DNA from: a virus
Lineage: Duplodnaviria; Heunggongvirae; Uroviricota; Caudoviricetes
Virus record (IMG/VR): IMGVR_UViG_2718218136_000004
Direction: 5' to 3' (one strand)
Length of the DNA stretch: 56,412 nt
The notes under the pieces were generated by a model, which did not search any database, had not been told where the DNA came from, and saw only the letters and a program-made list of their open reading frames with translations. The position numbers and the translations under genes are program-made. This document shows positions 4,403 through 56,412 of the stretch, one piece after another (position 1 is the stretch's first letter; every line of letters starts with the position of its first letter).

Positions 4403-4455
4403 GGGCGGCAGAGCAGTCACGGAGTAAAACTGATACCGCCAAACGTCACCAGAAA
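4403..4455 (-). ncRNA. dicF: DicF small regulatory RNA (ftsZ-targeting sRNA of Qin-type prophages)
   Basis: Minus-strand sequence TTTCTGGTGACGTTTGGCGGTATCAGTTTTACTCCGTGACTGCTCTGCCGCCC followed by a T-run matches the recalled 53-nt DicF; located between ydfC-like and dicB as in the K-12 dicB operon. Confidence 0.65.
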
Positions 4456-10961: not shown

Positions 10962-11172
10962 AAACGGTTTGCGGGAAAAGGAGAGTTAAGTAGAATTGCA
11001 GCGGGTGCTTGAGGCTATCTGTCTCAGGCATGAACACCAAAAGGCAGATAGAGAAAAGCCCCAGTTAACATTACGCGTCCGGCAAGACGCTTAACATTAA
11101 TCTGAGGCTCAATCTATGAACGGCAAATCTAGGTTAGCCTCTTACGTGCCGAAAGGCAAGGAGAAGCAGGCT

Positions 11173-11328
11173 ATGAAGCAGCAAAAGGCGATGTTAGTCG
11201 CCCTGATCGTCATCTGTATTACCGTCATTGTGACGGCACTGGTAACGAGGAAAGACCTCTGCGAGGTACGAATCCGAACCGGCCAGACGGAGGTCGCTGT
11301 CTTCACAGCTTACGAACCTGAGGAGTAA
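11173..11328 (+). CDS. hokD: Hok/Gef-family type I toxin, HokD (RelF)-like
   Basis: MKQQKAMLVALIVICITVIVTALVTRKDLCEVRIRTGQTEVAVFTAYEPEE is near-identical to recalled K-12 HokD; AAGGAG RBS; upstream in-frame extension to 11116. Confidence 0.8.
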   Translation: MKQQKAMLVALIVICITVIVTALVTRKDLCEVRIRTGQTEVAVFTAYEPEE

Positions 11329-14689: not shown

Positions 14690-14765
14690 GGCCCTTTAGC
14701 TCAGTGGTGAGAGCGAGCGACTCATAATCGCCAGGTCGCTGGTTCAAATCCAGCAAGGGCCACCA
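14690..14765 (+). tRNA. tRNA with CAU anticodon, tRNA-Ile2 (ileX/ileZ-like) or Met
   Basis: 76 nt; 7-bp acceptor stem GGCCCTT/AAGGGCC, D-arm with GG, anticodon loop CTCATAA, T-loop TTCAAAT, 3' CCA. Confidence 0.8.
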
Positions 14766-14766
14766 A

Positions 14767-14843
14767 CCGTCACCAGTTCATCAGGAAAGAGCGTCAACCC
14801 TTTAAGTTGAGTGTGCGAAGTTCGAGTCCCCGGTGGCGGTCCA
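14767..14843 (+). tRNA. tRNA-like sequence, non-canonical (possible pseudo-tRNA)
   Basis: Acceptor stem 7/7 paired (one G-U), D-stem GTTC/GAGC, anticodon stem TCAAC/GTTGA with loop CCTTTAA (C at position 33), T-loop TTCGAGT but T-stem does not pair. Confidence 0.3.
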
Positions 14844-14845
14844 GT

Positions 14846-14921
<76 letters not shown>

Positions 14922-14924
14922 TAT

Positions 14925-14999
<75 letters not shown>

Positions 15000-18538: not shown

Positions 18539-19021
18539 ATGTCAGGACCTCCGAAAACCCCGCCACGCCTGCATTTGATTCGAGGTAACCCCTCAAAGCG
18601 CCCCGTTAAAGACCACAAAAAAACCGCTAAAAAGGATGAAAAAGGTCTTCCTAAAATTCCGCAGCATTTAGGGGCTCAGGGGAAGTACTGGTTCAGGCGA
18701 ATGGCGGAAGAGCTGAATGCGGAAGGGATCATTTCTCAGCTTGATGCGCGTGCGCTCGAGCTGCTGGTGGAAGCCTACACCGAATATCGGCATCACTGCG
18801 AAACACTCGATGTTGAGGGGTATACCTACCGCACGGAAACGCAGAGCGGTGATGTACTGATTAAGGCGCACCCCGCGGCGGCAATGAAAGCGGATGCCTG
18901 GAAGCGGATCCGGGCAATGCTTGCAGAGTTTGGTATGTCACCGGCAAGCCGGGCTAAAGTAAATATCGCCGGACCGGATGATGTTGATCCGCTGGCGGAG
19001 CTTTTAAAAGCGAGAGACTGA
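18539..19021 (+). CDS. Terminase small subunit (P27 family)
   Basis: 160-aa ORF immediately upstream of and overlapping terL; similar architecture to the insert-encoded TerS. Confidence 0.75.
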   Translation: MSGPPKTPPRLHLIRGNPSKRPVKDHKKTAKKDEKGLPKIPQHLGAQGKYWFRRMAEELNAEGIISQLDARALELLVEAYTEYRHHCETLDVEGYTYRTETQSGDVLIKAHPAAAMKADAWKRIRAMLAEFGMSPASRAKVNIAGPDDVDPLAELLKARD

Positions 19022-20048
19022 TGGCAAAAGTGGCTGACGGGATCCGCTACGCCGAACGTGTTGTTGCAGGAGAAATTGTTGCTGGCGAATTTGTCCGCCT
19101 GGCCTGCCAGCGTTTTCTTGATGATCTGAAGTACGGCGAAGAGCGGGGGATTTATTTCAGTGAACCCCGTGCGCAGCACATCCTGAATTTCTACAAATTT
19201 GTGCCTCATGTAAAAGGGGCGCTGGCAGGCCAGCCCATTGAGTTGATGGACTGGCATGTATTTATCCTCATTAATATTTTTGGTTTTGTCATTCCGCTGG
19301 TCAATGAAGAGACCGGGGAAGTTGTCATGCGCAGCGATGGCAGCGGACGTCCGGTGATGGTGCGCCGGTTCCGGACGGCGTACAACGAAGTCGCCCGTAA
19401 AAACGCAAAATCAACTCTGTCATCGGGTATCGGCCTGTATATGACGGGGGCAGATGGTGAAGGCGGAGCTGAGGTGTATTCAGCCGCAACCACGCGTGAC
19501 CAGGCCAGAATCGTGTTTGAAGACGCCAAAAATATGGTCAGAAAAGCCCGGTCGACACTCGGGCGGTTGTTTGATTTCAACAAGCTGGCGATTTACCAGG
19601 AGCAGAGCGCATCAAAATTTGAACCGCTTTCTTCGGATGCAAACAACCTGGATGGTCTGAACATCCACTGCGCCATTATTGATGAGCTGCATGCACATAA
19701 AACCCGTGACGTGTGGGACGTTCTGGAAACGGCAACCGGTGCCCGTCTGCAGTCCCTTTTATTTGGTATCACCACGGCAGGGTTTAACAAGGAAGGGATT
19801 TGTTACGAGCAGCGTGATTACGCCATCAAGGTATTGCGTGGCTATAACAGCGACGTGGAGGGCGCGGTAAAAGACGACTCCTACTTTGCGATTATTTACA
19901 CCCTCGATGAGGGAGATGATCCGTTTGATGAAACGGTCTGGCAGAAAGCGAATCCTGGCCTGGGCATCTGTAAACGCTGGGATGATCTGCGTCGTCTGGC
20001 GAAAAAAGCGAAAGAACAGGTCTCTGCGCGGGTGAATTTTTTTACCAA
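19021..20048 (+). CDS. Terminase large subunit, 5' portion (ATPase domain), interrupted by insertion at 20042-20048
   Basis: N-terminal 342 codons align with the insert-encoded TerL up to ...ARVNFFTK; ORF then continues in frame into insert sequence and the integrase gene. Confidence 0.85.
20042..20048. repeat. attL crossover core (TTACCAA)
   Basis: Identical 7-bp core at 35490-35496; flanking sequence partially conserved (TT[T/C]TTACCAA). Confidence 0.5.
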
Positions 20049-20178
20049 GAAAGTAACATCACGCCGTAACAACAGTGCGACCTGTCCTGATTTTTTTAGT
20101 AACCAAATGAAAGAAAAAGTTTTTTTTCTTGTTCGTCGTTTTTGTTTTTTCTGGAAGGTTCTGGCTGTTTTCATCATT

Positions 20179-20200
20179 TGTGTATTGCACTGTGTATTGC
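20179..20200. repeat. Tandem TGTGTATTGC repeats near attL, candidate integrase arm-type binding sites
   Basis: TGTGTATTGCACTGTGTATTGC just upstream of int; near-identical GTGTATTGCGCTGTGTATTGC near attR. Confidence 0.45.
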
Positions 20201-20220
20201 AAAAACGGGTTATAAATCAC

Positions 20221-21444
20221 ATGGCGCTAAACAAACTGAGCGATAAAAAACTTCGTTCCCTGCTTGGACGCAGGAGTGAGAGGCAGGAAACCATCGCTGA
20301 TGGTAACGGGCTTTCGGTACGGGTCAGTAAATACGGATGTGTTAGTTTTGTTTTCTTTTACAGACTGGCGGGAAGGGGAACCGCGCCCATCTGGCTGACA
20401 CTTGGAAAATATCCTGATCTGAGTCTCAAATCAGCGAGAGAGATGCGCGATCAGTGTCGAACCTGGCTTGCGGAGGGCAGAGATCCACGGATTCAGATAA
20501 AAATTGAACGGGAAGCCACCTTGCAACCTGTTACCGTTCGTGAGGCACTTGAATACTGGCTTGATAATTATGCAATGGATAAGCGTAGGGGAGCAGAACA
20601 TATCAGGCAGTGCTTTGGTAAACATATTTATCCGGTGATTGGTCATGTACCACTTAGTGATTGCTCTATATCTATGTGGATCAAGTGTTTTGACAAAATA
20701 AAAAAAGTAGCACCTGTACAGGCCGGAGCTTTGTTGCGTATATCAAAACAGGCGCTTAAATTTTGTAGGGTAAGAAAATACGCGATTAGTCATGAAATTG
20801 ATGATCTTGAGGTCTGTGATGTGGGAAAAAAGTCTGCGCGAAGAAGCAGGGTTTTAACAGATGATGAAATCAGAGATTTATGGCGAAGTATTAATACTGA
20901 TTATGACAATCACGAATTATCATATGAAAACCGAATTATTTTACGTTTCCTGGTAGTTTTTGGTTGTCGACTGTCAGAAGTATTACTGTCGTCCTGGGTA
21001 GAGTGGGATTTTGATAAGAAATTATGGCGCGTTCCCGCTGATCATAGCAAAAATGGCAGGGAAATAATCAGACCGATTCCTGATGGCATGTTTAACTGGT
21101 TAGTTACGTTAAAAAAAATAACAGGTAACAAAGAAAATGTGATTGGGTTTGATATGCGTCAGTGTACGGCAAGCGTAACTATCGGTAAGACATGGAAAAG
21201 GATGAAACACTCGGAGAAATGGACGGCGCATGATATGCGAAGAGTGTTTGCCACAAAACTAAGTGATCATGGTTTTGAACATAATGTGGTTGAACAGTTG
21301 CTTGGGCACACATTAGGCGGTGTTGCCGGGGTTTATAACAGAAGCCAGTATATGGACAGAAAAAAAGAAGCTATGAACTGGTGGTACGACTATCTGAATA
21401 AGCAAATTAGTGGTGACAGTAATGATTCAAATAGTTACGCGTGA
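20221..21444 (+). CDS. int: P4-like tyrosine integrase of the satellite
   Basis: MALNKLSDKKLRSLLG... N-terminus typical of P4-family integrases; catalytic context FGCRLSEV, HDMRRVFAT, GVYNRSQY. Confidence 0.85.
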   Translation: MALNKLSDKKLRSLLGRRSERQETIADGNGLSVRVSKYGCVSFVFFYRLAGRGTAPIWLTLGKYPDLSLKSAREMRDQCRTWLAEGRDPRIQIKIEREATLQPVTVREALEYWLDNYAMDKRRGAEHIRQCFGKHIYPVIGHVPLSDCSISMWIKCFDKIKKVAPVQAGALLRISKQALKFCRVRKYAISHEIDDLEVCDVGKKSARRSRVLTDDEIRDLWRSINTDYDNHELSYENRIILRFLVVFGCRLSEVLLSSWVEWDFDKKLWRVPADHSKNGREIIRPIPDGMFNWLVTLKKITGNKENVIGFDMRQCTASVTIGKTWKRMKHSEKWTAHDMRRVFATKLSDHGFEHNVVEQLLGHTLGGVAGVYNRSQYMDRKKEAMNWWYDYLNKQISGDSNDSNSYA

Positions 21445-22621: not shown

Positions 22622-23064
22622 CCACACGCGGTGTTGATTATACGGTACATCGTGTTGACCGGGAAGCTACCCACCAGCAAGGCAAAATCTTCTGCTAAAA
22701 AATGACATATGACCAGTCGTCCGGAAAGCATGAAATTTTACAAAAATGGAAAATGAAGATTTTTATTGTGCTGGTGGGTAAAAACAAAAAGCGCCCCGTT
22801 ACCGGAGCGCCCTTGCGAACAATTAACCTACTGCGCAAAAAATGAATCTGTGCGGGGGGATTATATCAACCGTGGTCGAAATGACCATAGTTGCAGGATA
22901 ACAGGCAAAACAAAGGCCACCCGCTACGGTGGCCCCTTGACACAAGCTACACGTTATCCCCAACGCATGAGCATAACCAACAATGCCACATTTACGGCTG
23001 GTGGGCAAATCCTGAGCTGTTCTGTAATTACAGAAACTACGGCATTGTCGCGGTTAGGTTATGA

Positions 23065-23217
23065 TCAACTTTTTTTCAACTCTATATCGCAAGCACGCCG
23101 TAATATATCGCCTTCATTGCTTCCGCAAAGATTCTTTTTCTCGAAGCATGATTTTAAGATAAAGGCGGCGACAATTAGAACAATCGCACAGAGTGCACAA
23201 TTTTTAAGTTTTGGCAT
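23065..23217 (-). CDS. Small hydrophobic peptide (50 aa)
   Basis: [28 protein letters not shown]... with AGGAG RBS 7 nt upstream; downstream of an RHH-like gene on the same strand. Confidence 0.4.
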
Positions 23218-23271
23218 CTTTTACTCCTATGGTTGCCGCCGTGATTCCTCACACCACGGCGCTGGTGATGG

Positions 23272-23451
23272 TTATTCCTGCTCTTTGGCCTTGCGACGCT
23301 GGCGGTATTCAACTTCTCGCTTTAATGCTGCTGTTACAAACTGCCCTGTACTTTCACCAGGCATTTTTACCGCCTCAACATTGTTCATAACTTCATGCGG
23401 AACCCTTGCCGCAACTGTTTGTGATTTTGCGTTTACTGCTTTTGTTGCCAT
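23272..23451 (-). CDS. Ribbon-helix-helix-like small DNA-binding protein
   Basis: 59 aa; ...[17 protein letters not shown]...[16 protein letters not shown] fits an RHH strand-helix-helix pattern; adjacent to palindromic operators. Confidence 0.45.
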
Positions 23452-23501
23452 GTTGTGTACCCCTTACAAAAAACAAATGCAGTATGCAGGAAAAAAAATA
23501 A

Positions 23502-23553
23502 GTGTTCAACACTTGACGTGTTTAACACTAGGGCTTAAATTGGTGTTCAACAC
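23502..23553. promoter_or_regulatory. Satellite operator region: three GTGTT(C/T)AACAC palindromes between divergent operons
   Basis: Palindromes at 23502-23512, 23518-23528, 23543-23553. Confidence 0.45.
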
Positions 23554-23650
23554 CTTGCTGATGCAAGGTGCAGAAACGACGAAACCCGGCAGTGCGCTAA
23601 CACTAACCGGGCTTCTAACCACCAACGATAGAAAGCGTATCGAGGTAGCT

Positions 23651-24190
23651 ATGCTAAATCATACCACACACCCGCAAGGGCGGGACTCGCACAACCTGAA
23701 TAAACCCGATGTAAAAAACCTGTTGATCGCCACTGCCAGCCAGGGCTATGATTTACCCGCACCAGCAAAATCTGGTGCCGGGATTGGCGTCCTGGTATTT
23801 AACGAAGCGCACAACACGCGCCCTGCGTGTTTTTTTGTGCCGGATAGTCACACCTTATCAATGGTGGGCTGTATGGGGGCGGAGCAATCCGCGCCGGGTT
23901 CTTCGTTAACCGGTTACGCCAACCCTGTACAGTCCACCGCCAGCGAAATTGGCGTTTCCTGCGGTGGGTTTATTAAACCTAACGAAGAGGCTGCCAACAT
24001 GGCTACTATCCCTACCCTTGTACATTCCCAAACTGCCTTTATCTGGCGCTTTATCATCTTTGGCGCGTCAGAGTCCCAAATCATCCACGTCACCGCCTGG
24101 ACGGAACGCGAAGCGCGTAACCATTGCCCGTCAGGTTGTGTCGCTGTATTCGCCGCCCGTATTCGTCAGGGGGTGCGCCATGTGCAATAA
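23651..24190 (+). CDS. Hypothetical protein (first gene of satellite rightward operon)
   Basis: GAGG RBS before ATG at 23651; stop overlaps next start; amino-acid composition not strongly protein-like. Confidence 0.3.
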
Positions 24191-24639: not shown

Positions 24640-24954
24640 ATGAAAAAGAAAAATTCTGGCTTTACTGCCAGCGGTCACGCTCGGCCTGAAATCCGCCCCG
24701 GTGATATTTTCCGGGATAAATACGGCAGCACGATAACGATTAAAACCGTCGATGATTTTCGTGTGACCTATATCCGCGAAGGTTATGCGCATCCCTGCGT
24801 GTCGTCACATATGCGCTTTGACAGGGAGTTCACCCTGGTAAGCAAAGCACCACCAGCAGAATTAAGCGACATCGACAGAATCATGCGCGTTACAGGAATG
24901 GAACGCATTAAGGCAGTACGTGAAATTATTCGTGAACGGGGAAAGGCAAAATGA
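24640..24954 (+). CDS. Hypothetical protein
   Basis: 104-aa ORF overlapping the start of the replication gene. Confidence 0.45.
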   Translation: MKKKNSGFTASGHARPEIRPGDIFRDKYGSTITIKTVDDFRVTYIREGYAHPCVSSHMRFDREFTLVSKAPPAELSDIDRIMRVTGMERIKAVREIIRERGKAK

Positions 24955-27077
24955 AGCGCGCACCAAACTTAAAGCACCAGCCAGCCGACAAAATGACGGA
25001 GGTTATCATCTTTGCGGGTAGTGATGCGTGGAGCCATGCGAAAGAGTGGCAGGAATGGGCAGGTAAGCATATTGCCGCCGACAATGTGCCGCCTGTCGTT
25101 CTGTCAGATGAACACCTGAAAGATATTACCGGTTATCAAATTATTGATGATAGCCGTCAGTGTGTGCGTATTTACCGCGCAGGGCACATCACTGAACGTA
25201 GCCTCACACAGATCGTCACGTTGCTGGCTGTGGCTGGCGTGAAGACCGTATACGAATACGCGGGGATAACTGACACCAGCCCGGCGGATTTATCCGACCA
25301 GTTGCCTCGCCTCAAAGACGAATACGAGCGCGGGGAAAGTCTGGTGTTGCCCTTAAAGAAAAAAATCACAGAAAGCCCGGGTGATGATGAATTAAAGCCC
25401 CGCGTTGAAAGCCGCGCCGATGGTGTTTTCTGGGTAACGCCAAAAGTGGATAAGCAGTCAGGCGAAATTATCCGGCCTGAAACGTGGTTATGCTCCCCGC
25501 TTGAGCTACTGGGAACGGGGACAATCGGCAAAGAGCATTACCGCGTGATGCGCTGGAAAAAGCCAGCAAACCATGAAGTCATCACGATGGCGGTTCCGTG
25601 CGGTGGCATTGGCGACCGTGACGGCTGGCGGCTGCTGAAAGACCACGGACTGAACGTGACAACCAACGGTAAATACAGGGCTATCCTGGCTGACTGGATG
25701 CAGTTAAGCGGAAACCATGAGGAATGGCAGTTAAGCACAACAACGGGCTGGCATTTTGGCGCGTACATCATGCCGGACGGTTCGGTCATTGGTGATTGCG
25801 AAAAGCCAGTCCTGTTTACCGGAAAAACGGCTGCCGTTAATGGTTATTCCGTGGCAGGAACGGCGGAGGGCTGGCGCGACAGTGTGGCGCGACTGGCTGG
25901 TGGTAATCCGTCCATGATGCTGGGTGTGGCGGTATCGCTATCCGCACCATTAATCGGGCTGGTGGGTGCTGACGGCTTCGGGGTACATCTTTTCGAACAG
26001 TCATCGGCAGGTAAGACCACAACGCAGAACATCGCATCAAGTTTATGGGGAGAGCCGGACGCGCAGCGGCTGACCTGGTACGGCACAGCGTTAGGTATCG
26101 CCAACGAAGCAGAGGCACACAATGACGGGCTTTTACCCCTGGATGAAATAGGCCAGGCCGGAAACGCGCGGGAGGTGTCCACGTCAGCCTATACGCTGTT
26201 TAACGGTTCGGGGAAATTACAGGGGGCGAAGGACGGCGGCAACAGGGAGATCAAACACTGGCGCACGGTGGCAATCAGCACCGGAGAAATGGACGTTGAG
26301 ACATTCCTCAAAACGGAGGGGATAAAAGTCAAAGTGGGGCAGCTTGTCCGCCTGCTTAACGTTCCGATGGAAAAAGCCACGCAATTTCACGAATACAGCA
26401 CCGGAAAGGCGCACGCAGACGCGTTAAAGGATGCCTGGACAGAAAATCACGGGGCGGCGGGTCGTGAGTGGGTTAAATGGCTGGCAGAACACCAGCAGGA
26501 GGCAAAGGACACGGTAAGGACATGCCGTGAGCGGTGGCGCAACCTGATACCGGAGAGCTACGGCGAACAGGTTCACCGTGTGGGGGAGCGATTTGCCATA
26601 CTGGAGGCCGCGCTTGTGCTTTCAGGTCATGTTACTGGCTGGGATGAGCAGGAATGCCGCGATGCCATACAGCATAATTTTAATGCCTGGGTGAAGGAGT
26701 TCGGCACGGGTAACAGGGAATTTAAACAGATGGTTGAACAGGCAGAAGCTTTTTTAGCGTCGTTCGGATTCAGCAGATACCTTCCGTGGCCCAATACCGA
26801 CGAGCGTGATTTACCGATTAAAGAACTTGCCGGATACAGAAAGGGGAGTATCAGAAACGAAGATGACGAGTTCCGTTTTTACACGTTCCCGCATGTATTT
26901 GAGGGTGAGATAGCACAGGGATTTAATCCGTCTCACTTTGCCCGCGCGTTGAGTGCTGCCGGAATGCTGGAAGCGGGTAACGATCGCCGTTACAAGAAAA
27001 AGGCGCTCGGCAAAATTGGGGGGAAGCAGCATGTTTTTTACGTGCTGATGTTCCAGCCAGAAAGCGAAGAAGATTAA
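24951..27077 (+). CDS. Satellite replication initiator, primase/helicase-like P-loop NTPase (DUF927-like)
   Basis: 708-aa ORF with Walker A-like SSAGKTTTQN; immediately upstream of an iteron/AT-rich origin and an SSB gene. Confidence 0.6.
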   Translation: MKRAPNLKHQPADKMTEVIIFAGSDAWSHAKEWQEWAGKHIAADNVPPVVLSDEHLKDITGYQIIDDSRQCVRIYRAGHITERSLTQIVTLLAVAGVKTVYEYAGITDTSPADLSDQLPRLKDEYERGESLVLPLKKKITESPGDDELKPRVESRADGVFWVTPKVDKQSGEIIRPETWLCSPLELLGTGTIGKEHYRVMRWKKPANHEVITMAVPCGGIGDRDGWRLLKDHGLNVTTNGKYRAILADWMQLSGNHEEWQLSTTTGWHFGAYIMPDGSVIGDCEKPVLFTGKTAAVNGYSVAGTAEGWRDSVARLAGGNPSMMLGVAVSLSAPLIGLVGADGFGVHLFEQSSAGKTTTQNIASSLWGEPDAQRLTWYGTALGIANEAEAHNDGLLPLDEIGQAGNAREVSTSAYTLFNGSGKLQGAKDGGNREIKHWRTVAISTGEMDVETFLKTEGIKVKVGQLVRLLNVPMEKATQFHEYSTGKAHADALKDAWTENHGAAGREWVKWLAEHQQEAKDTVRTCRERWRNLIPESYGEQVHRVGERFAILEAALVLSGHVTGWDEQECRDAIQHNFNAWVKEFGTGNREFKQMVEQAEAFLASFGFSRYLPWPNTDERDLPIKELAGYRKGSIRNEDDEFRFYTFPHVFEGEIAQGFNPSHFARALSAAGMLEAGNDRRYKKKALGKIGGKQHVFYVLMFQPESEED

Positions 27078-32971: not shown

Positions 32972-33328
32972 ATGGCAAGACCACCAAAAGCCCCCGCTTA
33001 CCTGGATGAAATCGCGGTCAGGCAGTGGAAGGAAAAATCGCGCCAGCTTTCCGGGCGGGAAGACCTTACCCCCGCCGACTGGAGCAATCTGGAACTGTAT
33101 TGTGTTAACTACTCCATATACCGCAAAGCCGTCGAAGACCTTGCGACGCGCGGGTTCAGCATTGTTAACAGTCAGGGCAGCGAGAGCAGAAACCCCGCCC
33201 TGAGCGCAAAGGCTGACGCGGAAAGAATAATGATCAAAATGGCTTCTTTGCTGGGTTTTGACCCGGTAAGCCGCCGCAGAAATCCACCGGAAACAGAGGA
33301 AGAGGACGAGCTTGACCGCCTGGCATGA
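32972..33328 (+). CDS. Satellite terminase small subunit (P27 family)
   Basis: Start at MARPPKAPAYLDE... (ATG 32972); upstream of and overlapping terL. Confidence 0.65.
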   Translation: MARPPKAPAYLDEIAVRQWKEKSRQLSGREDLTPADWSNLELYCVNYSIYRKAVEDLATRGFSIVNSQGSESRNPALSAKADAERIMIKMASLLGFDPVSRRRNPPETEEEDELDRLA

Positions 33329-34973
33329 GTACGCAGAAGGCGTAAAAAACGGCAAAATTACGGCCTGTAAACGACTGAAACAGGCCGTTAAACGGTATTT
33401 TTATGACCTTGAAAACCCCCTTTACACGTTCGAACCGGAGGTCGTGGAGCGGTTTATTGCCTTTTCCAGGGTGTGTCCGCACGTAAAAGGCGCAATGCGT
33501 GGTAGCCCCATTGAGCTGGAGCCGTGGCAGCAGTTCGCCTTTGCGTGCATCCTGGGCTTTAAGGTTAAGGCCACCGGACGGCGCAAATACACCAGCGCAT
33601 TCATTGAAGTACCGCGAAAAAATGCCAAATCCACGGTCGCCGCTATCCTGGCTAACTGGTTTCTGGTTATGGAAAACGGGCAGCAGGATATTTACACCGC
33701 CGCCGTGAGTCGTGATCAGGCGCGGATCGTGTTTGATGATGCGCGTCAGATGTGCCTTTTATCCCGACCGTTACGAAAGCGGGTAAATATTCAGGCACAC
33801 AAGGTGATACACCCGAAAACCAACAGCCTGTTAAAGCCACTGGCAGCAAAAGCGGCAACCATTGAAGGTACAAACCCGAGTCTTGCCATTGTAGATGAAT
33901 ATCACCTGCACCCTGACAACGGGGTTTATTCCGCGCTTGAACTGGGAATGGGGGCGCGTCCGGAGGGGTTATTATTTGCCATCACCACATCGGGGAGCAA
34001 CGTTGTTTCAGCCTGTAAACAACACTACGACTATTGCTGCCAGATACTGGATGGTGAAGAGGTGAACGAATCCATGTTCGTACTGATTTACGAGCTGGAT
34101 GATGAAAGCGAGGTTGACGATCCGGCGATGTGGATAAAGGCGAATCCCAATATCGATGTTTCCGTCGATCGTGAAAAACTGGCCTCAACCATCCAGAAAG
34201 CGCGGGGTATTCCGTCGCAGTGGGTGGAAATGCTCACCAAGCGATTCAATATCTGGTGTCAGGGGGCTACGCCGTGGATGGGTAACGGTGCATGGGCGGA
34301 GTGCGCCGGAACGTTCGCGGAGGCGGATTTATACGGGCAGGAGTGCTACGTGGGGCTGGACTTATCATCAACCAGCGATATTTCTAGCGTGTGCTATGCC
34401 TTTCCGGTCGGTAAAAAGATTATGCTGGTTTCCCGTCACTATCTGCCGGAATTTCAGTTACAGAACCCCGCCAATAAAAACCGCGCCATTTATCGCCAGT
34501 GGGTAAAGGCGGGCTGGATACGCACAACACCGGGTGACTGCATTGATTATGACCGTATCCGTGATGACATCATGGTGGATGCAGAGAATTTCAGTATCAG
34601 GCTGGTGGGCTTCGATACATGGAACGCCACTCACCTGAGAACACAGCTACAGGGGGCGGGATTTGAGGTGGAGCCGTTCCCGCAAACGTACCTTCGTTTC
34701 AGTCCGGCGGCGAAATCGTTCGAAGTTTTTGTTAACCGGAAGGTGATTGTGCATCGTGGTGATCCGGTGCTGGCCTGGTCAATGAGTAATGTTGTGATGC
34801 AGAGTGACGCGAACGCCAATATCAAGCCGAACAAGAAAAAATCATCCAACAAGATAGACCCGAGCGTTGCGGCGCTGATGGCGTTTGGCACATTCCAGGC
34901 AGAGCATGAGGAATTTGCATTCGATATGAGCGACAGCCACAAAGAGCGGCTTGCGACGTTTGATGGTGTGTAA
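33312..34973 (+). CDS. Satellite terminase large subunit, intact
   Basis: 553-aa ORF co-linear with both fragments of the split prophage terL (ATPase and nuclease domains). Confidence 0.85.
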   Translation: MTAWHEYAEGVKNGKITACKRLKQAVKRYFYDLENPLYTFEPEVVERFIAFSRVCPHVKGAMRGSPIELEPWQQFAFACILGFKVKATGRRKYTSAFIEVPRKNAKSTVAAILANWFLVMENGQQDIYTAAVSRDQARIVFDDARQMCLLSRPLRKRVNIQAHKVIHPKTNSLLKPLAAKAATIEGTNPSLAIVDEYHLHPDNGVYSALELGMGARPEGLLFAITTSGSNVVSACKQHYDYCCQILDGEEVNESMFVLIYELDDESEVDDPAMWIKANPNIDVSVDREKLASTIQKARGIPSQWVEMLTKRFNIWCQGATPWMGNGAWAECAGTFAEADLYGQECYVGLDLSSTSDISSVCYAFPVGKKIMLVSRHYLPEFQLQNPANKNRAIYRQWVKAGWIRTTPGDCIDYDRIRDDIMVDAENFSIRLVGFDTWNATHLRTQLQGAGFEVEPFPQTYLRFSPAAKSFEVFVNRKVIVHRGDPVLAWSMSNVVMQSDANANIKPNKKKSSNKIDPSVAALMAFGTFQAEHEEFAFDMSDSHKERLATFDGV

Positions 34974-35393: not shown

Positions 35394-35414
35394 GTGTATT
35401 GCGCTGTGTATTGC
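35394..35414. repeat. GTGTATTGC repeats near attR, candidate integrase arm-type sites
   Basis: GTGTATTGCGCTGTGTATTGC; further GTGTAT / CAATAC copies at 35361-35390. Confidence 0.45.
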
Positions 35415-35496: not shown

Positions 35497-36226
35497 ACAC
35501 ATGAATGTGTGGGTAACAGCAGAGTCTGCCTGGATGGACATGATTAAGTGGGAGAAGTGCGAATACATTGCCCCGCGACATGAGCTGAAAACGTATCCCA
35601 TGTGGGTCGGCGTTGACCTTGCTCATAAGATTGATATCTGTGCGGCGGCAAAACTCTGGCGAACGGATAACGGGCATGTTCATGCCGATTTTAAATTCTG
35701 GCTCCCGGAAGGACGGCTGGAACGATGCTCGCGGCAGCAGGCAGAACTTTACCGGAAGTGGGCGGAGATGGATAAGCTGATTCTGACGGATGGTGATGTT
35801 ATCGATCATGCTCAGATAAAAAGTGACTTACTGGAATGGATTGGTGGTGAAAACCTCAGGGAACTGGGATTTGACCCGTGGAGCGCGATGCAGTTCAGCC
35901 TGGCACTGGCTGAAGAAGGGATACCGCTGGTGGAGGTTCCGCAGACGGTTCGCAATCTGTCAGAGGCCATGAAGGAAACGGAATCACTGGTCTATGCCGG
36001 ACGTTTCCATCACAGCAATCATCCGGTCATGAACTGGATGATGTCTAACGTTACGGTAAAACCGGACAAAAACGACAATATCTTCCCGAATAAATCCACG
36101 CTGGAAGCCAAAATCGACGGCCCTGTTGCGATGTTTACAGCAATGAGCCGGATGCTGGTCAATGGTGGTGAACCGGAGCCGGATCTGTCTGAACATCTGG
36201 TCAGCGTGGGCATCCGCTCGCTTTAA
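35490..36226 (+). CDS. Terminase large subunit, 3' portion (nuclease domain), continuation of the gene interrupted at 20048
   Basis: Translation ...[14 protein letters not shown]... is co-linear with the insert TerL segment ...TKRFNIWCQGATPW...; downstream motifs also conserved. Confidence 0.85.
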
Positions 36227-52432: not shown

Positions 52433-55400
52433 ATGGCAGTAAAAATTTCAGGTGTACTGAAAGACGGCACAGGAAAACCGGTACAGAACTGCACAATCCA
52501 GCTGAAAGCAAAACGTAACAGTACCACGGTGGTGGTGAACACGCTGGCATCTGAAAATCCGGATGAAGCCGGGCGTTACAGTATGGACGTTGAGTACGGT
52601 CAGTACAGCGTTATTCTGTTGGTGGAAGGATTCCCGCCGTCACATGCCGGGACCATCACAGTGTATGAAGATTCCCGACCCGGTACGCTGAATGATTTTC
52701 TCGGTGCCATGACGGAGGATGATGCCCGTCCGGAGGCACTGCGCCGTTTTGAGCTGATGGTGGAAGAGGTGGCGCGTAACGCGTCCGTGGTGGCACAGAA
52801 CACGGCAGCCGCGAAGAAGTCAGCCAGTGATGCCAGCACATCAGCCCGTGAGGCGGCAACCCATGCGACTGATGCTGCAGGCTCAGCACGCGCAGCCAGC
52901 ACGTCAGCCGGACAGGCCGCGTCGTCGGCTCAGTCAGCGACTTCCAGCGCAGGAACGGCATCAGCAAAAGCCTCTGAGGCATCAAAAAGTGCTGCCGCTG
53001 CAGAGTCCTCAAAAAGCGCGGCGGCCACCAGTGCCGGTGCGGCGAAAACGTCAGAAACGAATGCGGCAGCGTCACAACAATCAGCAGCCACTTCTGCATC
53101 CACCGCGACCACGAAAGCGTCAGAAGCAGCCACTTCAGCACGGGATGCGGCGGCCTCAAAAGAGGCGGCAAAATCATCAGAAACGAACGCATCATCAAGC
53201 GCCAGTAGTGCCGCTTCCTCGGCAACGGCGGCAGGAAATTCCGCGAAGGCGGCAAAGACGTCTGAGACAAACGCTAAGTTCTCTGAAACGGCAGCGGAAC
53301 AGAGTGCCTCAGCTGCGGCAGGCTCAAAAACAGCGGCTGCATCATCTGCCAGTGCCGCGTCAACAAGTGCCGGGCAGGCCTCAGCCAGTGCCACCGCCGC
53401 CGGAAAATCGGCAGAAAGCGCCGCATCGTCTGCTTCAACAGCCACAACGAAGGCTGGCGAAGCCACTGAACAGGCCAGCGCAGCAGCGAGGTCTGCTTCC
53501 GCAGCGAAGACATCCGAGACGAACGCGAAAGCGTCGGAAACCAGCGCAGAATCCTCAAAAACGGCTGCCGCATCGTCCGCCAGTTCGGCGGCGTCATCGG
53601 CATCATCGGCGTCTGCTTCAAAAGATGAGGCGACCAGACAAGCGTCCGCAGCGAAGGGCAGCGCCACGACAGCATCCACGAAGGCGACAGAGGCAGCTGG
53701 CAGTGCGACGGCGGCAGCACAGAGCAAAAGTACGGCGGAATCTGCAGCAACGCGCGCCGAGACAGCGGCAAAACGGGCAGAGGATATTGCATCCGCCGTG
53801 GCGCTTGAGGATGCGAGCACGACGAAAAAGGGGATAGTACAGCTCAGCAGCGCGACCAACAGCACGTCTGAAACGCTGGCGGCAACGCCAAAGGCAGTAA
53901 AAGCAGCCTATGACAATGCAGAGAAACGTCTGCAGAAAGACCAGAACGGCGCTGATATACCCGATAAGGGACGCTTCCTGAACAACATTAACGCGGTCAG
54001 TAAAACAGACTTTGCTGATAAGCGTGGTATGCGTTATGTGCGGGTTAACGCTCCTGCAGGTGCAACATCTGGAAAATATTATCCTGTTGTTGTTATGCGT
54101 TCTGCTGGCTCAGTAAGCGAACTGGCATCAAGGGTCATTATCACCACGGCAACGCGAACCGCAGGCGATCCGATGAATAACTGCGAGTTTAACGGATTTG
54201 TTATGCCTGGTGGCTGGACTGACAGGGGGCGTTATGCTTATGGAATGTTCTGGCAATATCAAAACAATGAACGAGCCATCCACTCAATAATGATGAGTAA
54301 TAAGGGCGATGATTTGCGCTCTGTGTTCTATGTTGATGGCGCTGCTTTCCCTGTTTTTGCGTTTATCGAAGATGGCCTGTCAATATCCGCACCTGGTGCT
54401 GATCTCGTTGTTGATGATACGACCTATAAGTTTGGGGCAACAAATCCGGCGACTGAATGTATCGCGGCGGACGTTATCCTTGATTTTAAGAGTGGGCGTG
54501 GTTTTTATGAGTCCCATTCGTTAATCGTTAACGATAACTTGTCGTGCAAAAAACTTTTTGCCACAGACGAAATTGTAGCGCGTGGTGGTAATCAGATTCG
54601 AATGATAGGTGGGGAGTATGGTGCATTATGGCGTAATGATGGCGCTAAAACTTACCTGCTGCTTACCAATCAAGGTGATGTTTATGGTGGCTGGAATACA
54701 TTAAGACCGTTTGCTATTGATAACGCAACCGGCGAACTGGTTATTGGAACCAAACTGTCCGCAAGTCTGAACGGTAATGCATTAACAGCAACAAAGCTGC
54801 AAACGCCAAGACTGGTTTCTGGTGTTGAGTTTGATGGTTCCAAAGATATTACTTTAACCGCCGCGCATGTGGCTGCTTTTGCCAGAAGGGCAACGGATAC
54901 ATATGCCGATGCGGATGGTGGCGTTCCCTGGAATGCCGAATCAGGCACTTATAATGTCACCCGCTCTGGCGACAGCTATATTCTGGTTAACTTCTATACC
55001 GGAGTCGGAAGTTGCCGGACCCTGCAGATGAAGGCGCATTACAGAAATGGTGGTCTGTTCTACCGTTCTTCAAGAGATGGCTATGGTTTTGAGGAAGACT
55101 GGGCAGAAGTTTATACCTCGAAAAATCTTCCACCAGAAAGCTACCCAGTCGGCGCACCAATCCCGTGGCCATCAGATACCGTTCCGTCTGGTTATGCCCT
55201 GATGCAGGGGCAGACTTTTGACAAATCTGCCTACCCGAAACTTGCAGCCGCTTATCCGTCAGGCGTGATCCCTGATATGCGTGGCTGGACGATTAAGGGC
55301 AAACCTGCCAGTGGTCGGGCCGTATTGTCTCAGGAACAGGACGGCATTAAATCGCATACCCACAGCGCCAGCGCATCCAGTACGGATTTGGGGACGAAAA

Positions 55401-55831: not shown

Positions 55832-56412
55832 TGGCATTCAGAATGAGTGAACAACCACGGACCATAAAAATTTATAATCTGCTGGCCGGAACTAATGAAT
55901 TTATTGGTGAAGGTGACGCATATATTCCGCCTCATACCGGTCTGCCTGCAGACAGTACCGATATTGCACCGCCAGATATTCCGGCTGGCTTTGTGGCTGT
56001 TTTCAACAGTGATGAGGCATCGTGGAATCTCGTTGAAGATCATCGGGGTAAAACGGTTTATGACGTGGCATCAGGGGACGCGTTATTTATTTCTGAACTC
56101 GGTCCGTTACCGGAAAATGTTACCTGGTTGTCGCCGGAAGGGGAATATCAGAAGTGGAACGGTACAGCCTGGGTGAAAGATGCAGAAGCAGAAAAACTGT
56201 TCCGGATCCGGGAGGCGGAAGAAACAAAAAACAGCCTGATGCAGGCAGCGAATGAGCATATTGCGCCACTTCAGGATGCTGTAGATCTGGAAATCGCAAC
56301 GGAGGAAGAAAACTCGTTGCTGGAAGCCTGGAAAAAGTATCGGGTGTTGCTGAACCGTGTTAATACAACAACTGCACCGGATATTGAATGGCCAGTAGCA
56401 CCTATAGGGTAA
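55831..56412 (+). CDS. tfa: Tail fibre assembly protein
   Basis: [39 protein letters not shown]... matches lambda Tfa; stop TAA at 56410-56412. Confidence 0.85.

Follow-up and report, generated by a model that had tools for sequence, protein, structure and literature searches.

A YlcI/YnfO-family ribbon-helix-helix-like protein and its class-specific operators as a candidate replication switch of a satellite embedded in an Escherichia coli prophage

The window, i.e. the whole stretch of 56,412 nucleotides that was analysed, is a lambdoid Escherichia coli prophage with Q, tRNAs, lysis genes and terS (PGAP and Pfam); a locus in E. coli APEC17 is identical to it, and the PGAP annotation was taken from there. 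The terL gene of the prophage is interrupted, which leaves an N-terminal part (19021 to about 20080) and a C-terminal nuclease part (35501-36226), and an element of about 15 kb sits between the two halves, with its integrase fused in frame to the terL stump and a 21-nt repeat at 20180-20200 and 35394-35414 as the candidate att core. The left side of the element carries int, two AlpA genes and a Bro-N gene; to the right of the region described here follow an Icd-like gene, a DUF4222 gene and a DUF927 primase-helicase gene, and the other genes encode SSB, PerC, capsid, protease, portal, connector, HNH and TerS proteins as well as a TerL of its own. An earlier note, made from the letters alone, had taken the element for a satellite, and this gene content together with the insertion in the prophage terL bears it out. 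The hallmarks of a capsid-forming, helper-embedded Gram-negative PICI were all found, the shared orientation with the prophage late gene included. Judged by its genes, we conclude that the element is a capsid-forming PICI embedded in the helper late gene terL, a configuration that has been described (PMC10111431).

Between the Bro-N gene and the replication genes lies a short region with the following features:

22900-23064, minus strand: conserved untranslated 3' region of the leftward unit, with an intrinsic terminator (22937-22912) at its end
23065-23217, minus strand: 50-aa ORF with an ATG start and the ribosome-binding site AGGAG (23224-23228) 6 nt upstream
23252-23267, minus strand: hairpin in the gap that separates the two small genes, its stem seen on the plus strand and not followed by a T-run; it is kept in variants as well as in EcCICFT073
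23272-23451, minus strand: 59-aa YlcI/YnfO-family ribbon-helix-helix (RHH)-like ORF, candidate satellite repressor, with an ATG start and AAGGGG 8 nt upstream
23306-23563, no strand: immunity cassette exchanged as a unit, i.e. the DNA-binding part of the gene with P_L, the operators and P_R
23481-23509, minus strand: proposed leftward promoter P_L, TTGAAC (23509-23504), 17 nt, CATACT (23486-23481), from direct reading
23502-23512, no strand: candidate operator O1 GTGTTCAACAC, exact, abutting the P_R -35 and invariant in seven same-class loci
23513-23541, plus strand: rightward promoter P_R, TTGACG, 17 nt, TAAATT, sigma-70-like, with 9/12 matches in a consensus scan
23518-23528, no strand: candidate operator O2 GTGTTTAACAC, exact, in the first part of the P_R spacer
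23543-23553, no strand: candidate operator O3 GTGTTCAACAC, exact, beginning 2 nt past the P_R -10 and lying over the expected start site
23554-23650, plus strand: leader of the rightward transcript, with hairpins at its 5' end (23551-23570) and at 23585-23611
23723-23752, plus strand: internal promoter-like site from the consensus scan, ending 7 nt before the isrK 5' end
23759-23835, plus strand: isrK / c4-a1b1 target element with a terminator (Rfam isrK, 80 bits)
23857-23944, plus strand: C4-type antisense RNA (Rfam RF01695, 75.3 bits against a gathering score of 45)
23949-24190, plus strand: downstream C4 targets and the Icd-like ORF (ATG 23999), the first gene of the replication operon, from complementarity and the PGAP annotation of the identical locus
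24640-27077, plus strand: DUF4222 gene and DUF927 primase-helicase gene (Pfam, E 9e-19 and 6e-46)

Both leftward ORFs are present as previously described, with good ribosome-binding sites and fewer than 60 aa each. A 474-aa ORF on the plus strand (22766-24190) was rejected as a gene: it is antisense to both small genes and spans the promoter region and the two RNA genes, and PGAP labels parts of it as pseudogenes.

The earlier note had asked for profile searches with both small proteins; the 50-aa peptide matched no family, and the 59-aa protein matched the NCBIfam family YlcI_YnfO_N (NF041551) with 59.7 bits against a cut-off of 30 (E = 2e-16), its residues 9-50 aligning with positions 1-42 of the profile. 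PGAP names the identical protein YlcI/YnfO family, and a match to PHROG 949 (no known function) was also found. Homologues occur exclusively in Enterobacterales, and the family is small, with 79 clusters at 50% identity among 1.84 billion representatives. Among 50,697 phage genomes, tblastn with the protein gave no match and neither did megablast with the region; thus, the module is not a common phage feature.

The description of the 59-aa protein as RHH-like held up. Alignments show the RHH pattern, i.e. a short strand with R-V-P at its end, a first helix, a G-E-S turn, a second helix and a basic tail, and a strand-helix-G-x-S/T turn-helix topology as well as likeness to solved RHH structures were recorded for the protein. 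Moreover, distant family members match PSK_trans_fac (2.9e-4), RHH_1 (4.5e-4), HicB_lk_antitox and TacA1, all below threshold. The protein itself had no Pfam RHH match and passed no curated RHH sequence model. In the AF2 monomer (pLDDT 80) the two helices are predicted with high confidence and the N-terminal segment is a low-confidence helix instead of a strand; Foldseek returned no match, and hhalign against the sequence of Arc was weak (E = 0.004-0.008), although the register was the expected one. Searches of PDB sequences, made with the protein as well as with the family profile, yielded chance matches alone (DNA polymerase beta, designed cages), which were discarded. In total, we accept the 59-aa protein as RHH-like.

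Three palindromes had been placed at 23502-23553, between the leftward unit and the rightward operon that reaches the DUF4222 and DUF927 replication genes, and all three are exact. The sites are 11-bp palindromes of the form GTG-N5-CAC, here GTGTT(C/T)AACAC in each case. With at most one mismatch, a single further match was found in the 56-kb window, at 52532, and the observed count was not attained in any of 100 dinucleotide shuffles; with two mismatches allowed, there was no excess over chance in the window. The palindromes overlap the -35, spacer and +1 of P_R and the -35 of P_L. The TTGAC -35 and TAnnnT -10 of P_R are kept across the related loci described below. P_L has 8/12 consensus matches, which is under the threshold of the scan; its -35 (TTGAAC, 23504-23509) falls inside O1, its CATACT lies about 23 nt ahead of the 59-aa ATG, and a (T/C)ATACT box at the same position is kept in nearly all related loci, usually followed by another operator copy. 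Further downstream, the leader (23554-23650) is 86-91% conserved compared to EcCICFT073 and the Edwardsiella element, and its hairpins show compensatory changes in strain 405. A SymR match in the leader (32.8 bits against a threshold of 61) was taken as chance.

The rightward leader also contains an RNA layer. The 5' part of isrK scores 44.5 bits with the c4-a1b1 model, just under the gathering score of 46.7. Two places are complementary to the C4 loop UCUUCGUUAA and the linker ACGCCAA, each by exact matches of 7-9 nt: one upstream (23799-23807 and 23784-23790) and one downstream (23980-23988 and 23949-23955) that ends 11 nt ahead of the ATG of the Icd-like gene. In this way, the complete set of a C4 system was found, i.e. 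a model match over the gathering score and complementary targets in pairs, both upstream and over the ribosome-binding site downstream. Since the internal promoter-like site ends so close to its 5' end, isrK RNA may form even when P_R is shut. A comparison with EcCICFT073 identifies the isrK-C4 block (about 23705-24126) as inserted into an Icd-like reading frame. The two Rfam RNAs and the existing PGAP name YlcI/YnfO had both been missed in the earlier reading of this DNA; matches to C4 and isrK in Gram-negative PICIs have been reported (PMC10111431).

From this layout and from the comparisons that follow, we consider it quite likely that the region is an immunity switch of the satellite, in which the RHH protein would repress the replication promoter and probably also its own gene.

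A scan for related loci with one genome per species gave 31 loci. The comparison of sites draws on about 30 loci, from Edwardsiella, Pectobacterium, Kosakonia, Serratia, Xenorhabdus, Proteus, Klebsiella and E. coli. Synteny is kept: int/alpA, a ylcI-like gene pointing back to them, and then the promoter and pri/rep pointing away, so that most of the 31 loci have a primase or replication gene on the divergent side and int, with or without alpA, on the other. The module is also present, in the TGGCC class, in EcCICFT073, the prototype PICI, and in some PICIs (L029, L033) a DUF3950-type subfamily takes the same position. The loci have 2-4 sites of the GTG-N5-CAC type at matching positions upstream of the ylcI-like ATG. 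Within the 130 nt ahead of the gene, sites lie at about -100 and at about -77 from the ATG, the latter beside GTCAA, the reverse of TTGAC, and a third lies right after a TATACT box at about -32 or, in the clade of the window, at -61. The site at -77, the position of O2, is found in nearly all related loci, and that at -100, the position of O3, is also conserved. Rfam scans of 17 related loci found C4 or isrK in none of them. Altogether, the comparison argues that what these satellites have in general is the protein switch, and that the RNA layer is an extra of this one.

This layout bears on a different reading in which the RHH protein controls the leftward unit alone, i.e. itself and its cargo, and P_R is under AlpA, the C4 RNA or a host factor. 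Most related loci do have an operator copy directly past the leftward -10, AlpA is the sole regulator experimentally demonstrated so far (PMC6092414), and the C4 cassette would already be able to silence the operon. However, the best-conserved sites, at -77 and -100, are the P_R spacer and start site in essentially every locus, and in EcCICFT073 and the Edwardsiella element the RHH module occurs without C4 or isrK, so that no other recognisable silencer is present there. We therefore regard control of the leftward unit alone as unlikely, and repression of P_R by the RHH protein as the better reading.

The operator centre differs between loci, and all copies within one locus shift together. Moreover, the centre co-varies with residues 12 and 14 in the strand of the RHH-like protein in eight classes. 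Every strand class goes with a single operator, and the pairs include:

QT[VLI]AAR, with operator GTGTTGAACAC (centre TTGAA)
Q[SA]LK[SA]R, with operator GTGTGGCCCAC (centre TGGCC)
KKLEAR, with operator GTGTCAGCCAC (centre TCAGC)
QK[LV]Q[AT]R, with operator GTGGACTCCAC
(QKLQAR, common to the lines above and below, with operator centre GA(C/A/T)TC)
QK[LI]QAR, with operator (C/G)TGGA(T/A)TCCA(G/C)
KRFDVR, with operator GTGTCGGACAC (centre TCGGA)
QKMSAR, with operator CTGGCACCCAG

Mean site identity is 0.86 within a locus and 0.55 between strand classes, and the best chance match in shuffles was 0.63. In the class of the window (seven loci, 93-100% identity), the operators vary solely at the central base and the spacer that they leave uncovered varies freely. 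Because gene and operators are adjacent, co-variation between loci is partly linkage, and the concerted identity of the copies within each locus is the stronger argument for recognition of these sites by the protein.

A natural exchange separates the cassette from its neighbours. In strain OkiPb01701, both flanks, which hold the AlpA and Bro-N genes as well as the 50-aa ORF, match the window at 97-99% identity, and the counterpart of 23306-23563 is unrelated to it and belongs to the TGGCC class in protein and operators alike. The element of Edwardsiella hoshinae shares only 23278-23707 with the window. These two cases argue that the DNA-binding part and the operators move as one cassette, as phage immunity regions likewise do. 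Of 5426 complete E. coli genomes, 486 have a cassette of the window type.

The exchange speaks against the palindromes being bound by AlpA, Bro-N, a helper or a host factor, or serving as replication or recombination sites, with the 59-aa protein unrelated to them: AlpA-family and Bro-N proteins do bind DNA, but the operators track the RHH allele and not AlpA or Bro-N, since the AlpA/Bro-N region of OkiPb01701 is 97% identical and yet its operators are of the other class that matches its RHH allele; in addition, the sites are placed on promoter elements, further copies of the palindrome were found nowhere else in the satellite, and the PICI origins that have been mapped are found among replication genes (Primase, SSB, DUF5906) and not here (PMC10111431, PMC6092414). 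This reading is very improbable. The earlier note's regulatory switch thus stands as regards the palindromes on promoter elements and the co-variation of operators and strand over about 30 loci, and is not supported as regards a functional pairing with the peptide.

This pairing had been proposed as a repressor with an exclusion or toxic membrane peptide or as an antitoxin and its toxin. The 50-aa ORF is found in 19 of 5426 E. coli genomes, as opposed to 486 for the repressor-operator cassette, and in none of the 31 loci of other genera. The slot behind the repressor gene is variable: in EcCICFT073 it is taken by a basic protein of 57 aa that is unrelated to the peptide, and in Xenorhabdus elements it is empty. 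By these comparisons we conclude that the 50-aa ORF is accessory cargo and not the repressor's partner.

The encoded peptide has an N-terminal hydrophobic helix, Cys24 and then a charged tail with Cys31 and Cys43. It belongs to just two protein clusters among 5.8 billion sequences and had no match in Pfam, NCBIfam, PHROG or PADLOC, toxin families included. The AF2 model is weak (pLDDT 64), with helices at 3-26 and 36-48, and a membrane helix is predicted. AGGAG and the open frame are retained in four haplotypes, one with an in-frame 3-nt deletion, and the three cysteines are invariant among haplotypes; in one haplotype with an N-terminal DNA only 65% identical, a basic start, a hydrophobic stretch and the canonical lipobox L-I-S-C are still encoded. 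Compared to the lipobox [LVI][ASTVI][GAS]C, L-I-S-C (L036/L037) fits, the window allele reads L-K-S-C with Lys at -2 as a misfit, and L035 has L-L-T-C; n- and h-regions are present in all alleles. A dN/dS of 1.2-2.0 in every comparison gave no sign of purifying selection, substitutions were not enriched at third positions in the frame of either strand, one allele is without a stop codon, and the ORF is less conserved than its flanks. We call it a probable gene because the frame is kept and because of the ribosome-binding site, the hydrophobic stretch and the cysteines; dN/dS gives no proof of coding. On these features, the ORF probably encodes a real small membrane peptide or lipoprotein. Being co-transcribed with the repressor, the peptide would be expressed in the silent state, and a role in exclusion or host conversion is no more than a reasonable guess.

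The gene order, i.e. an RHH gene followed by a small ORF, and the palindromes in the promoter resemble type II toxin-antitoxin modules, and with its predicted membrane helix the 50-aa peptide could be a hydrophobic membrane toxin with the RHH protein as its autoregulating antitoxin. However, the partner is not conserved in E. coli or in the 31 loci of other genera and is replaced in EcCICFT073, as described above; the 59-aa protein stops about 10 residues past helix B and thus has no toxin-binding tail; the two genes are 54 nt apart, each with its own ribosome-binding site; two of the three operators are on the divergent promoter and not on the module's own; and the peptide has no match to a toxin family. 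Neither the conserved toxin nor the C-terminal binding region of the antitoxin that define a type II module were found. Small hydrophobic toxins are normally under antisense RNA control; no Rfam antisense RNA matched at the peptide and no similarity to the Hok, Ldr, Ibs or TisB families was found, which argues against a type I toxin. The chance that the two small genes are a toxin-antitoxin module is slight, and we return to the RHH protein as a repressor with the peptide as cargo.

The last 109 nt of the 3' region of the leftward unit are present in 556 E. coli genomes, EcCICFT073 included, and the folding stability of the region is unexceptional (z = -1.1). At E <= 1, no Rfam family was found on 23065-23270, and two chance-level matches (E 0.14 and 0.59) at 22783-22839 were the only ones in the leftward unit.

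For the immunity switch, we propose the following mechanism. The 59-aa RHH repressor would be made from the weak P_L, together with the co-transcribed 50-aa cargo, and a repressor dimer would bind the three 11-bp GTG-N5-CAC palindromes. With O2 in the P_R spacer and O3 on the start site, occupied operators would block transcription from P_R and thereby of the Icd-like gene, DUF4222, the DUF927 primase-helicase and further downstream genes, and O1 on the repressor's own -35 would give negative autoregulation. Residues 12 and 14 of the strand would read the variable centre of the palindrome and conserved residues the conserved GTG/CAC ends, and both together would define the immunity classes. 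What the analysis shows is the anatomy of the sequence, the family of the protein, its fold similarity, the conservation, the co-variation and the exchange of the cassette, and from these we infer binding, repression, autoregulation and the recognition code. As a second layer, the P1-type C4 RNA may damp transcripts that escape P_R and block Icd translation as a back-up.

How the switch is released is speculation. On the plus strand, a scan from the Bro-N gene to P_R found no strong terminator, only two weak 5-bp stems at 23252 and 23396. On this basis, AlpA-dependent transcription from the left could pass int-alpA-bro, enter the convergent repressor gene and proceed from there into the replication operon, and in the embedded copy helper late transcription entering via the terL-int fusion could serve instead. 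Such convergent transcription would lower the repressor level and bypass P_R. The idea of a non-contiguous operon for phi80 (PMC11364771) resembles this release by read-through. In published work, AlpA was necessary and sufficient for the start of the EcCICFT073 cycle, so that the repressor may be one of several controls.

The proposed switch shares parts with several known systems. The immI region of P22 contains the Mnt repressor, O_mnt, and P_ant with Arc, and the antisense RNA sar lies in the same region. As in P22, the satellite has a gene for a small RHH-like repressor candidate divergent from the promoter that it would shut off, with operators overlapping both promoters; it likewise resembles a second immunity region beside other controls, with an antisense RNA nearby. 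In contrast to P22, the satellite has three 11-bp sites instead of one 17-bp operator and an operon with Icd-like and replication genes instead of an antirepressor, and the 59-aa protein lacks the tetramerisation tail of Mnt and, apart from the RHH pattern, shows no detectable homology to either Mnt or Arc (hhalign E = 0.004).

A C4-family RNA, paired targets and an Icd-like gene are shared with immI of P1/P7 (c4, icd, ant) and with P4 (CI RNA, seqA/seqC). However, the P1 promoter is under the C1 repressor and P4 is controlled by RNA alone, whereas the satellite promoter appears to have an RHH protein and operators; moreover, many related satellites have the RHH module without a C4 RNA, unlike P1/P7 and P4. 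The position between integration and replication genes, divergent from the replication operon, is that of Stl/Rpr of Gram-positive PICIs (SaPIs) (PMC6092414). Stl is a larger helix-turn-helix protein that is inactivated by helper-phage proteins, whereas the satellite protein is a 59-aa RHH-like protein without an obvious partner-binding domain, and induction of Gram-negative PICIs needs AlpA, unlike Stl-type control. By analogy, the switch is thus closest to P22 Mnt/O_mnt/P_ant in logic, to P1/P7 immI and P4 CI in its RNA parts, and to Stl/Rpr in position; at the level of sequence comparison, no homology of the 59-aa protein to Mnt, Arc or Stl is detectable. Its relatives in the NCBIfam family are K-12 YlcI (DLP12), YnfO (Qin) and DUF3950. 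K-12 ylcI is divergent from nohD, beside the cos of a defective lambdoid prophage and not in a satellite switch, and the literature searched reports no function for it.

In the literature searched, no functional study was found on YlcI, YnfO, DUF3950 or ribbon-helix-helix proteins with PICIs, and no repressor has been named for Gram-negative PICIs. A global repressor in these elements was described as unclear and the contrast with the Gram-positive elements as a mystery (PMC6092414), in the later papers searched, on embedded, capsid-forming and Enterobacter PICIs, discussion of control is limited to AlpA and the C4/isrK RNAs (PMC10111431), and the YlcI/YnfO gene in capsid-forming PICIs was given merely as a "prophage-associated protein" (PMC13612085). 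We found no prior paper linking this family to PICI control, and what is new here is a candidate repressor role for it.

A wider reading, which we offer tentatively and hold to be possible rather than probable, is that Gram-negative PICIs, among them EcCICFT073 and the capsid-forming ones, have in the YlcI/YnfO RHH protein their missing master repressor, with a simple two-residue strand code that would define interchangeable immunity classes. Such a repressor would be overcome by convergent, terminator-resistant transcription antisense through its gene and on into the replication operon, and not by a helper antirepressor as in SaPIs, and this transcription would depend on AlpA in free-standing elements and on helper Q in embedded ones.

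Small RHH repressors on divergent promoters are of a well-known kind, and the value of the present finding lies in an open question made testable and not in a new principle. A conserved small gene with class-specific operators on the replication promoter is a concrete and cheaply testable repressor candidate. If it acts as proposed, satellites could be sorted into immunity classes by their sequence, and the natural pairs of protein and operator could be reused as orthogonal repressors.

The satellite insertion site falls within the terL gene of the prophage, in the segment for the nuclease domain, and the parts of this terL lie in the 19021-21444 region and at 35501-36226. The integrase continues in frame from the terL stump, giving a single 807-aa ORF (19021-21444). 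Moreover, a 21-nt direct repeat is present at both satellite ends (20180-20200 and 35394-35414) and is likely the att core. A second, full-length terL (33312-34973), which is only 33% identical to the prophage terL, belongs to the satellite itself.

On the minus strand, three features lie behind the 50-aa ORF of the leftward unit:
22900-23064, minus: non-coding stretch behind the 50-aa ORF, with a strong terminator at its end (22937-22912)
22887-22860, minus: promoter-like site rated good (TGGTCA-16-TATAAT with an upstream TG)
22814-22787, minus: 12-bp terminator hairpin, about 40 nt past the promoter-like site

The non-coding stretch is more conserved than the 50-aa ORF, and its final 109 nt are present in 556 of the 5426 E. 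coli genomes, EcCICFT073 among them, and are unannotated in all; unusual folding was not predicted for the stretch. The promoter-like site and the terminator hairpin together would give a small RNA of ~70 nt from 22787-22887 (minus), flanked by the Bro-N gene on one side and the leftward unit on the other. This candidate did not match any Rfam family.

The leader of the proposed rightward promoter P_R contains two hairpins:
23551-23570, plus: hairpin that begins within the operator palindrome O3
23585-23611, plus: hairpin for which E. coli strain 405 shows compensatory changes, also retained by satellites without C4

Rfam or ARAGORN gave further hits in the window, all within its prophage portion:
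4403-4454: DicF
11003-11178: sok-like antitoxin RNA
14690-14999: genes for three tRNAs (Met/Ile, Thr and Gly), located downstream of Q
56174-56372: IS009

The family namesake, ylcI of E. coli K-12 MG1655 (locus L044, 580251-580834), lies in the prophage DLP12 divergent from nohD and directly adjoining the cos site, a setting that differs from the satellite switch of the window. K-12 ylcI is a member of the NFSAWV (DUF3950) subfamily, which in some PICIs (loci L029 and L033) is also found at the switch position.

A 474-aa open frame (22766-24190, plus) runs antisense across both small genes and also spans the promoter region and both RNA genes. In several genomes, PGAP labels segments of this frame as Icd-like or Ash pseudogenes, some of which overlap the ylcI-like gene; substitution patterns did not support the frame as coding.

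By comparison with EcCICFT073, the isrK-C4 block (23705-24126) looks like an insertion into an Icd-like reading frame, and the 179-aa ORF (23651-24190) results from this apparent insertion. Pfam Phage_ASH and PHROG 29966 match the 179-aa ORF across its RNA-encoding part and, therefore, the 'Ash' protein family may largely represent translated C4-type RNA genes.
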